Positions 15,807-29,014 of a stretch of DNA of 29,997 nucleotides are shown here, piece by piece. The notes under the pieces are model-generated. The model was not told the DNA's origin, did not search any database, and worked only from the letters and a program-made list of their open reading frames with translations. Source of the DNA: Candidatus Odinarchaeota archaeon (lineage in GTDB: Archaea > Asgardarchaeota > Odinarchaeia > Odinarchaeales > Odinarchaeaceae); the NCBI GenBank assembly GCA_038826135.1, contig JAWBON010000008.1, forward strand, positions 1 to 29,997. Direction: 5' to 3'. Numbering within the stretch: position 1 is the stretch's first letter; each line of letters starts with the position of its first letter. A program made the position numbers and the translations under genes.

Positions 15807-17225
15807 TTATGTGAAGGAGGGGCGGGAGGATAGCAGGGCTGGTAAAGGTGTTTTTTTAAACGGTTTACCAGCGGTTTCATTTTTAATTATATTGATAAGT
15901 TCTTCTAAAGACAGTTCTACTATGGTAGGCTCCCTCTCAGTTGATAATAACCTGTTTCTCACAGTGAGTTTACCTTTTTCAGCCTCTTTATCCCCTAATA
16001 TAACTATGTAGGGCGCCCAGTCTCTTCTCTCAGCGTCCATTATTTTTTTACCTATACTTTTATCCCTGTCATCTATATCCGCTCGTATATTATTCGCCTC
16101 TAAACTCTGCTGTATTTTTTTAGCGAAGTCTATATGCCTGTCAGCTACTGGTATTAGTCTAACCTGGGTTGGTGACAACCATAATGGTAGTGTGGGGAGT
16201 TTTGAATTCATCTTATTTTTAAGAGCTGTTTCGAGAAGAGCGTATATCACTCTCTCAATGCTACCCATAGAGCTATGAAGTATTATACACCCTTTTTTCC
16301 CCCCGTCTTCATCAGCGTATCTTATTCCATATCTCTCAGCATCTTCAACGTCTAATTGAACTGTTGATAGCTGAGCGTTCCCGCCTACACTGTCAATCAC
16401 CTGGTATTCTGATTTAAGAGCCCAGTAATGTTTCATAGATGGTATTATCTCAACCAGCGCTCTCTTACCGATCAGGCTGATGAGGTTTTTAAGAAATAAT
16501 TTCTGTTCTTCAAAGTATTTTTTAACAACCCTGAAAACTAGCACGTAGCTGATACTTAAACCAGTAAGGAGATTGTGATAGAATTTTGTTAAGTTAATAT
16601 ATTCTTCAAGTCCCTGTTTGAAATCTCTGCAGAAACAGTGTAGGTCTGGCATGGTAAATGATCTCAGCCTTCTTAAACCAACACACTCCCCTCTTTTTTC
16701 TAATCTGAATGAGGGGGATAGTTCGAAAATCCTGACAGGCATCTGTTTATAACTGATTTGAGTGTCTCTCATCATCTTGAATAATCCGAAATCCCCAGCA
16801 AACCTGAGGAGCAGTGTCTTATTCCCTATTTTTAATCTATAATCTTTTTCAACGAATTTATCCGCCTGCTCTTTTATATCAGGCTCATCGTACCTGTACA
16901 TTATAGGTGTTTCAATCCTGATTGCGTTAAGCCATTCAGTAGCTGCCCATGCAGCATAATCTTCTATAAGTGATTTTAGGAATGCTCCTTTAGGGTACCA
17001 TCTGAAATGGCCTACATCACTAGCGGGTTCATAATCGACTAATTCTAGTTGTCTAAGATACTGGATGTGTTTAGGCGGCTCTGTGCAGAGACCGCCTATT
17101 TCCTCACTTATAATATACTGTCTTAGTTCAGGATCGTTCTTAACAGGCGGGCACTCATCTATGTTTTTTAAGTCTAGTTTAAACTCTCCTCCACTAGGCT
17201 CTATGATTAAGTGTCTGCTAGGCAT
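15807..17225 (-). CDS. thrS: Threonine--tRNA ligase, archaeal type, lacking the N-terminal editing domain
   Basis: ELVDYEP.SD.G..RWYPKG, motif 2 FRLEKRGEC.GLRRLRSFTMPDLH, LHSSMGSIER, and an anticodon-binding domain (WLSPTQVRLIPV). It is only 472 aa and has an in-frame TGA four codons upstream of the ATG. Confidence 0.92.
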   Translation of the reverse strand: MPSRHLIIEPSGGEFKLDLKNIDECPPVKNDPELRQYIISEEIGGLCTEPPKHIQYLRQLELVDYEPASDVGHFRWYPKGAFLKSLIEDYAAWAATEWLNAIRIETPIMYRYDEPDIKEQADKFVEKDYRLKIGNKTLLLRFAGDFGLFKMMRDTQISYKQMPVRIFELSPSFRLEKRGECVGLRRLRSFTMPDLHCFCRDFKQGLEEYINLTKFYHNLLTGLSISYVLVFRVVKKYFEEQKLFLKNLISLIGKRALVEIIPSMKHYWALKSEYQVIDSVGGNAQLSTVQLDVEDAERYGIRYADEDGGKKGCIILHSSMGSIERVIYALLETALKNKMNSKLPTLPLWLSPTQVRLIPVADRHIDFAKKIQQSLEANNIRADIDDRDKSIGKKIMDAERRDWAPYIVILGDKEAEKGKLTVRNRLLSTEREPTIVELSLEELINIIKNETAGKPFKKTPLPALLSSRPSFT

Positions 17226-17600: not shown

Positions 17601-17654
17601 AAATCTTTTTACCGTTCTTATTTTTTTAAATTTTTTATGGTGCGCCCGGTGAGA

Positions 17655-17676
17655 CTTTCGAAAAGCAGTGCTTTTT
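17655..17676 (-). other. Non-canonical T-loop (59/60) tRNA intron (22 nt)
   Basis: AAAAAGCACTGCTTTTCGAAAG. It forms a strict BHB: central helix UUCG/CGAA, bulges AA|A and AG|U, inner helix AAAAGC/GCUUUU. Removal restores the T-loop TTCGAAT. Confidence 0.88.
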
Positions 17677-17698
17677 TTCGAACTCACGGCTTCGGCCT

Positions 17699-17714
17699 AT
17701 CTGTGAATGAATCA
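17699..17714 (-). other. Canonical 37/38 tRNA intron (16 nt)
   Basis: TGATTCATTCACAGAT lies between G37 and A38. It forms a relaxed BHB with one C.A mismatch in the central helix. Confidence 0.85.
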
Positions 17715-17858
17715 CCGCAGGGCCGCGCAATATCCTGGCTATGCCACGGGCGCGTTTCAAAACCACTAGTTAACTATCAATAAACATTATTTAACTCTTA
17801 TTTTAGAGTGTTTAAACATTGGAAACGGTTTTAACCAGTTATCGATAAATATAATTTC

Positions 17859-28774: not shown

Positions 28775-28807
28775 TATGGTGGGTCGGGTGGGATTTGAAC
28801 CCACGAA

Positions 28808-28826
28808 TTTGCGAGTAAACCTACTT
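28808..28826 (-). other. Probable non-canonical variable-region tRNA intron (~19 nt, near 45/46)
   Basis: There are 24 nt between G43 and G49 instead of about 5. The insert contains an AGTA/TACT hairpin and a CTCGC that is complementary to GCGAG at the 3' side of the anticodon stem. The exact boundaries are ambiguous by 1-2 nt. Confidence 0.7.
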
Positions 28827-28834
28827 CTCGCGCG

Positions 28835-28851
28835 ATCCGGCTTCTCCAAGA
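28835..28851 (-). other. Canonical 37/38 tRNA intron (17 nt)
   Basis: TCTTGGAGAAGCCGGAT forms a BHB: central helix CUGG/CCGG, bulges GG|U and AU|C, inner helix CUU/AAG. Confidence 0.9.
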
Positions 28852-29014
28852 CCCCAGGCGCGGATCCTAATCCAAGCTAGACCACCGACCCGGCTTCACC
28901 GGTAATTTAGTAGGTGTTAAAGCATTTTATATATGCTTACCTTTTAACTTTATCGGCGTCTAACACGCTGGCTGAAACACGCGTTTCAATAGTATTAAAC
29001 TCTATTTCAAATTA

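Follow-up and report, generated by a model that had tools for sequence, protein, structure and literature searches.

Does a locus in which standard tRNA detection finds nothing, and whose T-loop is split by an insertion, encode a working tRNA, and does the organism depend on it? The locus lies in a window of 29,997 nt (the whole stretch of DNA analyzed) from a hot-spring archaeon of the class Odinarchaeia, represented by a metagenome-assembled genome (MAG) of 1.26 Mb, 38% G+C, and 93% completeness. Parsing of the sequence places a 116-nt pre-tRNA-Arg(GCG) on the minus strand, running from 17753 to 17638, with one insertion in the anticodon loop and another in the T-loop. A first-pass annotation, made from the sequence alone, gave the interval 17638-17753 without a strand and proposed two introns. 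The interval stands once assigned to the minus strand and both introns are present, with the correction that the bulge-helix-bulge (BHB) of the intron at 37/38 is relaxed in this genome. We put at roughly 90% the probability that this is the sole tRNA-Arg(GCG) gene of the archaeon and that it is interrupted by two introns removed by protein enzymes.

The gene (17638..17753, minus strand, as are all its parts) consists of three exons. Exon 1 (tRNA positions 1-37; 17715..17753) comprises the 5' strand of the acceptor stem, the D arm, the 5' strand of the anticodon stem, and C32 U33 G34 C35 G36 G37, with the anticodon GCG at 17716-17718. It is followed by intron 1, 16 nt at the canonical position 37/38 (17699..17714). 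Exon 2 (positions 38-59; 17677..17698) comprises A38, the 3' strand of the anticodon stem, the variable loop AAGCC, the T stem 5' strand GUGAG, and U54 U55 C56 G57 A58 A59. Intron 2, 22 nt at position 59/60 in the T-loop (17655..17676), separates it from exon 3 (positions 60-76; 17638..17654), which comprises U60, the T stem 3' strand CUCAC, the acceptor 3' strand CGGGCGC, A73, and a CCA end that is encoded at 17638-17640. In pre-tRNA numbering, the acceptor stem pairs 1-7 with 106-112, the D arm 10-13 with 24-27, the anticodon stem 29-33 with 57-61, and the T stem 67-71 with 101-105; the anticodon loop reads CUGCGG, intron (40-55), A, and the T-loop reads UUCGAA, intron (78-99), U. The acceptor stem is G/C-rich and 7 bp long, the variable loop has 5 nt, and the discriminator is A. 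Read directly from the spliced sequence, the universal nucleotides U8, A14, G18G19, A21, U33, G53, U54U55C56, A58, and C61 are all present, as are A20, C35, and G36, known arginine identity elements.

The T-loop insertion has the structure of a spliceable intron. It forms a strict BHB (hBHBh', with H=4, h=5, h'=6 by the archaeal definition), as the first-pass annotation had read from the letters. The 4-bp central helix UUCG/CGAA joins U54-A, U55-A, C56-G, and G57-C; it is flanked by the 3-nt bulges AA/A and AG/U (slashes mark the cuts), the outer helix is the 5-bp T stem itself, and the inner helix has 6 bp and a 3-nt loop. Only 4e-5 of 200,000 shuffles of the 22 nt match this quality, and no second BHB as strict (H=4, h>=5, h'>=6) occurs on either strand of the 30-kb window. 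The BHB at 59/60 is beyond chance. Its geometry, together with that at 37/38, fixes the predicted cuts at the G37/A38 and A59/U60 junctions. Cutting at these places restores a canonical tRNA with the universal 7-nt UUCGAAU loop.

The minimum-energy fold gives a different picture of the T arm. In this fold the A/U run is slid by three with the same pair count (z = -3.4) and the T arm forms a long continuous hairpin, consistent with a tRNA that keeps the 22-nt insert, or loses it by a route other than EndA, and works with an extended T arm. Nevertheless, it is the BHB register alone that runs on into the T stem and yields a 7-nt T-loop. The alternative intron register 79-98 was rejected because it leaves a 9-nt T-loop, a U.U at the outer junction, and a broken outer helix. 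The exactness of the BHB, the restored universal loop, the recurrence of this geometry in many Asgard families and, within this genome, in at least four other tRNA genes, and the presence of a broad-specificity type of EndA (below) also speak against retention, and we consider it very improbable that the mature tRNA carries the insert or loses it in another way.

The intron at 37/38 is less regular in this genome. Its central helix consists of C32-G, U33-A, and G34-C with a C35.A mismatch, its inner helix has 2 bp, and its bulges are GG/U and AU/A. In three relatives the intron is 15 nt long and the central helix is a perfect CUGC/GCAG, with a C-G pair in place of the mismatch.

Both introns bear on detection, as the first-pass annotation had anticipated in warning that standard pipelines may miss the gene. 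From the raw DNA of 17638-17753, ARAGORN calls no tRNA, and its search of the whole window returns tRNA-Ser(GCT) alone. Rfam likewise gives no RF00005 match to the raw DNA of 17638-17753, either at the gathering threshold or at E<=10; this comparison scored the raw gene, not the spliced form, and the miss is expected because the T-loop is split by an intron. Across the window, Rfam matches tRNA at the tRNA-Ser(GCT) gene and at one gene at 28780-28891. A permissive Rfam search around tRNA-Arg(GCG) finds no tRNA and returns matches at chance level only (CRISPR-DR40 at E 0.76, snoRNA-like, and others). When both introns are removed in silico (pre-tRNA 40-55 and 78-99), ARAGORN calls a 78-nt tRNA-Arg(gcg) with the T-loop TTCGAAT, the very loop that excision had been proposed to restore, in a cloverleaf with a 7-bp acceptor stem, a D arm, a 5-bp anticodon stem with a 7-nt loop, and a 5-bp T stem with a 7-nt loop. 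Removal of the T-loop intron alone again gives tRNA-Arg(gcg), now with a 16-nt intron in the anticodon loop, whereas removal of the 37/38 intron alone gives no call. It is therefore the T-loop intron that conceals the gene. An alternative ARAGORN call, tRNA-Ala(tgc) with 39-56 removed, was rejected: the acceptor stem carries G3-C70 instead of G3.U70, and the cut is at odds with the BHB.

From an annotation resting on ARAGORN and Rfam, the organism would seem to lack the capacity to read CGU and CGC. The same risk applies to at least eight other tRNA genes of the genome, to which ARAGORN and Rfam are blind without BHB-aware splicing. A noncanonical intron routine is available in tRNAscan-SE 2.0, trained on Crenarchaeota, Euryarchaeota, and Thaumarchaeota (PMC8450103).

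A gene that two programs fail to recognize, with a C.A mismatch in its 37/38 BHB, could be a pseudogene in decay, with a T-loop broken by an insertion and CGY codons left to another tRNA. Patterns of substitution argue otherwise. Orthologues were found by DNA search in three other species-level genomes of the genus, at 89-91% identity, one of these genomes being a single 1.4-Mb contig (G002). Across the four genomes, all exon bases are invariant, and every substitution or indel falls in an intron or in the 5' and 3' flanks. The alignment shows strong purifying selection on the exons, with introns that drift yet keep their helices. Identical exons in public Odinarchaeia/Odinarchaeota genomes also bear out the earlier guess, made from the letters, that the genome is Asgard-like.

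Changes within the T-loop intron are of a kind that preserves pairing. The sixth pair of the inner helix is C-G here and U-A in the relatives, and in one relative an additional A and an additional U, paired with each other, lengthen the inner helix. The 3' bulge is free to vary at its second base, which is G, U, or A. Over the four genomes, 99.3% of cells pair in the structure given above versus 28-46% when partners are slid by one to three columns. Two pairs of the inner helix are altered on both sides in the comparison of the four close orthologues and two from a second family. In a shuffle control, pairs changed on both sides are obtained in 53 of 500 cases, a weak statistic for four sequences. 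The covariation is real but thin.

The second family of Odinarchaeia (f2; G004 and G006) bears on the history of the two introns. Its orthologue was found with R1, a covariance model built from the four-genome alignment of tRNA-Arg(GCG). The orthologue lacks a 37/38 intron and has a 25-nt intron at 59/60, unrelated in sequence, that again forms a UUCG/CGAA helix. Therefore, the T-loop intron is common to both families examined, whereas the anticodon-loop intron is seen only in the genus. Two points are new: an intron at 59/60 of tRNA-Arg(GCG) is present in both Odinarchaeia families examined, and one at 37/38 is seen only in this genus. They add a small piece of intron history, of a T-loop intron that is class-wide and of one in the anticodon loop that is restricted to a single genus. 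Arg(GCG) of three other Asgard families (L013, L062, and L069) has an intact T-loop and introns located elsewhere. The gene of L013 (G014) has inserts in the D arm and variable region and intact anticodon and T-loops; its different layout indicates that intron positions of one isoacceptor differ between Asgard families.

A pseudogene is also hard to reconcile with these comparisons, in which four species share every exon base but differ in introns and flanks, the intron helix is kept by compensatory changes, and a second family has, at the same position, an insert that likewise forms a BHB. The public sequencing runs that contain the locus are hot-spring metagenomes, and DNA contigs of these runs at the locus include no intron-less form. 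Two runs labeled metatranscriptomic, which are probably DNA, do not cover the stretch and are silent on expression.

Copy number and codon usage weigh on the same question. The first-pass annotation had named an intact second tRNA-Arg(GCG), with this copy not transcribed, as evidence against it; no second gene was found in this 93%-complete MAG, where the DNA search, an envelope scan, and R1 each return one gene, or in the single-contig relative, where only one of five Arg-like R1 hits is a GCG gene. The other Arg genes of the genome have the anticodons TCT, CCT, TCG, and CCG. In long ORFs, CGT and CGC make up 16% of Arg codons, or 7.4 per 1000 codons, and tRNA-Arg(GCG) is therefore needed. 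With CGY codons in regular use and no other gene found to read them, including in the single-contig relative, the gene is very probably essential, and we give the notion of a decaying pseudogene very little credence.

Upstream of the gene, an A/T-rich, promoter-like stretch (17779..17794, minus strand) has TTAAATA at -41..-35 and TTTATT at -31..-26 relative to the mature 5' end. Boxes similar to TTAAATA lie at similar upstream distances in many other tRNA genes of the genome, and the stretch of tRNA-Arg(GCG) is kept in the three relatives. Such a box may be a TATA box. An A/T-rich inverted repeat (17789-17817, plus strand) lies between the tRNA and a divergently oriented gene of the NIF3 family and overlaps the promoter-like box; its match to CRISPR-DR40 (E 0.76) is at chance level.

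The part of tRNA genes between the T-loop and the 3' end is a classic target of integration, raising the possibility that a mobile element or an integrase left the insert behind at the T-loop as an att-like duplication that only mimics a BHB. The heptamer TTCGAAA does occur twice, once at the 5' junction and again close to where the insert ends on its 3' side. Yet TTCGAA is its own reverse complement, and the repeat follows because pairing is required and the sequence is self-complementary. In tRNAs with a UUCAAA loop, the intron carries UGAA, as pairing demands, and not a direct repeat. The neighbors are a class II aminoacyl-tRNA synthetase (aaRS), a small ORF, and the NIF3-family gene, with no integrase among them, and the insert is only 22 nt long and has been maintained with compensatory changes. 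An origin as an integration scar therefore seems most unlikely. The class II aaRS ORF (15807-17225, minus strand; 472 aa) has only core and anticodon-binding Pfam domains.

For a gene interrupted by two BHB introns, a maturation pathway can be proposed. Transcription would start from the upstream A/T-rich box, and the pre-tRNA-Arg(GCG) would be processed at its ends. EndA would cut both BHBs, yielding three exons and two excised introns, and ligation of the exons by RtcB would produce a 78-nt tRNA for the codons CGU and CGC. Before excision at 59/60, U54-G57 would be locked in the central helix, and the T-loop could therefore not take its normal fold until splicing. In this state it would presumably be unable to dock on the D-loop or to receive its loop modifications.

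The genome encodes the enzymes that such a pathway calls for. Two paralogous EndA genes are present here and in G001 and G002. EndA alpha (188 aa) aligns end to end with the catalytic subunit of Aeropyrum pernix EndA (3P1Z_B; E 1e-43), with no gap through the Crenarchaea-specific loop (CSL) and with the catalytic His included. It has the motifs GIDHSP and VRKKF and the Tyr/His/Lys triad. Its segment GKPVGIRKPKVPEFDRP aligns without gaps to the CSL region of 3P1Z_B and has the loop with the conserved Lys, and the same loop is found in this genome's own alpha fragment (P0001). Here the alpha gene is divided over the contig ends C48:1-435 (minus strand) and C72:2-274 (plus strand), which overlap by 42 identical residues; we therefore treat the division as an assembly break and reject a split gene. 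EndA beta (185 aa) is full length and has Ala where the EndA of Methanocaldococcus jannaschii has His. By homology, the genome clearly appears to encode an EndA of (alpha-beta)2 type with the L1 (Crenarchaea-type) loop, the subunit typing on which the first-pass annotation had wanted its proposal checked. RtcB is encoded as well. Its gene (C16:2586-5357, plus strand) gives two matches, to profile positions 1-50 and 49-426, that lie about 1.4 kb apart in a 995-aa open frame, and apparently contains an intein.

Multi-intron tRNA genes and noncanonical BHB introns were reportedly described from Thermoproteales and other Crenarchaeota by Marck and Grosjean in 2003 and Sugahara in 2008. The gene shares with the tRNA genes of these organisms short BHB introns, several per gene, at 37/38 and at noncanonical sites (PMC4090602), and the genome shares with them an (alpha-beta)2 EndA with the Crenarchaea-specific loop. 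The host, however, is an Asgard archaeon (Odinarchaeia) and not a member of Thermoproteota. Position 59/60 is among the known noncanonical intron positions (Yoshihisa 2014; PMC4090602), and BHB introns in T-loops are mentioned in PMC3241643. In that study, A. pernix EndA needed no other factors to cleave a BHB intron located away from the anticodon loop (Hirata et al. 2011; PMC3241643). The odinarchaeal alpha subunit aligns with that enzyme over its full length, including the CSL, but the substrate there was a D-loop rather than a T-loop intron, and the odinarchaeal enzyme is known from its sequence.

Likewise, the extension of this architecture to Asgard archaea, which the first-pass annotation had offered as the novelty, was already published (Kaneta et al. 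2018, PMC5829648; Valentin-Alvarado et al. 2024, PMC11291895). The former study (PMC5829648) mapped multi-intron genes among the tRNAs predicted from four Asgard genomes, one of them Odinarchaeota LCB_4. Its authors also linked an Asgard (alpha-beta)2 EndA with an L1 loop to a broad substrate range and took incomplete Asgard tRNA sets to point to undetected disrupted genes. In Atabeyarchaeia and Freyarchaeia, 92-95% of tRNA genes have introns, often noncanonical and multiple (Valentin-Alvarado et al. 2024; PMC11291895). The genome studied here resembles these Asgard sets (PMC5829648, PMC11291895) in that most tRNA genes are interrupted, often at noncanonical positions and more than once, and resembles the Asgard archaea of PMC5829648 in its (alpha-beta)2 EndA with the L1 loop. 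The gene is thus a clean example of an architecture already reported for Asgard, with no new mechanism or kind of system, and adds a well-supported case of the dependence of Asgard archaea on EndA/RtcB splicing for most tRNAs. Neither of the two publications, in its main text, gives an account of this gene or of its history at the level of intron position. Its added value is a curated hidden gene, a position-level history of two introns, and the recurrence of 59/60 introns in Asgard tRNAs.

That recurrence is evident first within the genome. Hidden tRNAs were sought by a scan for envelopes of acceptor stem plus CCA, followed by enumeration of BHBs and ARAGORN, and the scan recovers further tRNA genes that ARAGORN and Rfam miss or misread. 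A scan for GC-rich islands was dropped because its 678 islands were too unspecific. The genome has a BHB intron at 59/60 in at least four other tRNA genes, among them those at C5:24247-24377, C16:9622-9741, and C29:12159-12271, and probably in a fifth (C5:12805-12986). Also among the four is a paralogue, tRNA-Arg(CCG) (locus L030, C15:5973-6078, plus strand; orthologues L028, L029, and L031), which has the same two intron positions as tRNA-Arg(GCG); its intron at 37/38 is 12 nt long and that at 59/60 is 16 nt long. ARAGORN mislabels it Trp(cca) once its T-loop is spliced. By eye, the 59/60 introns of different tRNAs here have no mutual sequence similarity and therefore give no sign of recent intron transposition, unlike those Thermoproteales in which such transposition has been described.

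Across 101 genomes of the phylum, a 59/60 insert is present in 16 of the 24 best-scoring loci outside Odinarchaeia, a sample that is biased because the search model itself contains a 59/60 intron. Fourteen of the 16 inserts, from at least ten families, have the full 4-bp central helix, and in tRNAs with a UUCAAA loop the partner strand is UGAA. This recurrence of 59/60 introns across the phylum is also new. The near-invariant T-loop UUCRAAU would itself supply one strand of the BHB, and therefore any hairpin ending in YGAA plus two bases could become a spliceable intron in any tRNA. A wider view can be offered only tentatively, and we consider it somewhat less probable than its opposite: position 59/60 may be a hot spot throughout the Asgard phylum, the intron there in the sole Arg(GCG) gene of Odinarchaeia may predate the split of the two families, and splicing of the T-loop may be obligatory for reading CGU and CGC and may gate its folding and modification.

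Other tRNA genes of the genome vary in how they are interrupted. Judged by length, about 6 of 32 Rfam-detected tRNA genes are intron-free. The commonest type of intron is in the variable region (45/46-like), and two genes have an intron at 53/54 (C11:12319-12452 and C66:2348-2479). An ARAGORN call of Arg(gcg) at C72:5241-5341 is an artifact; in the Rfam alignment this gene is Val(TAC). Within the window, tRNA-Pro(GGG) (28777-28891, minus strand) has two inserts, a strict BHB intron of 17 nt at 37/38 and a variable-region insert of about 19 nt with approximate junctions; Rfam scores the gene at only 37 bits. Nearly all other tRNA genes of the genome encode CCA, whereas tRNA-Arg(TCT) and tRNA-Arg(CCT) (C58:5260-5334 and C36:11121-11195) are intron-free and have no encoded CCA.
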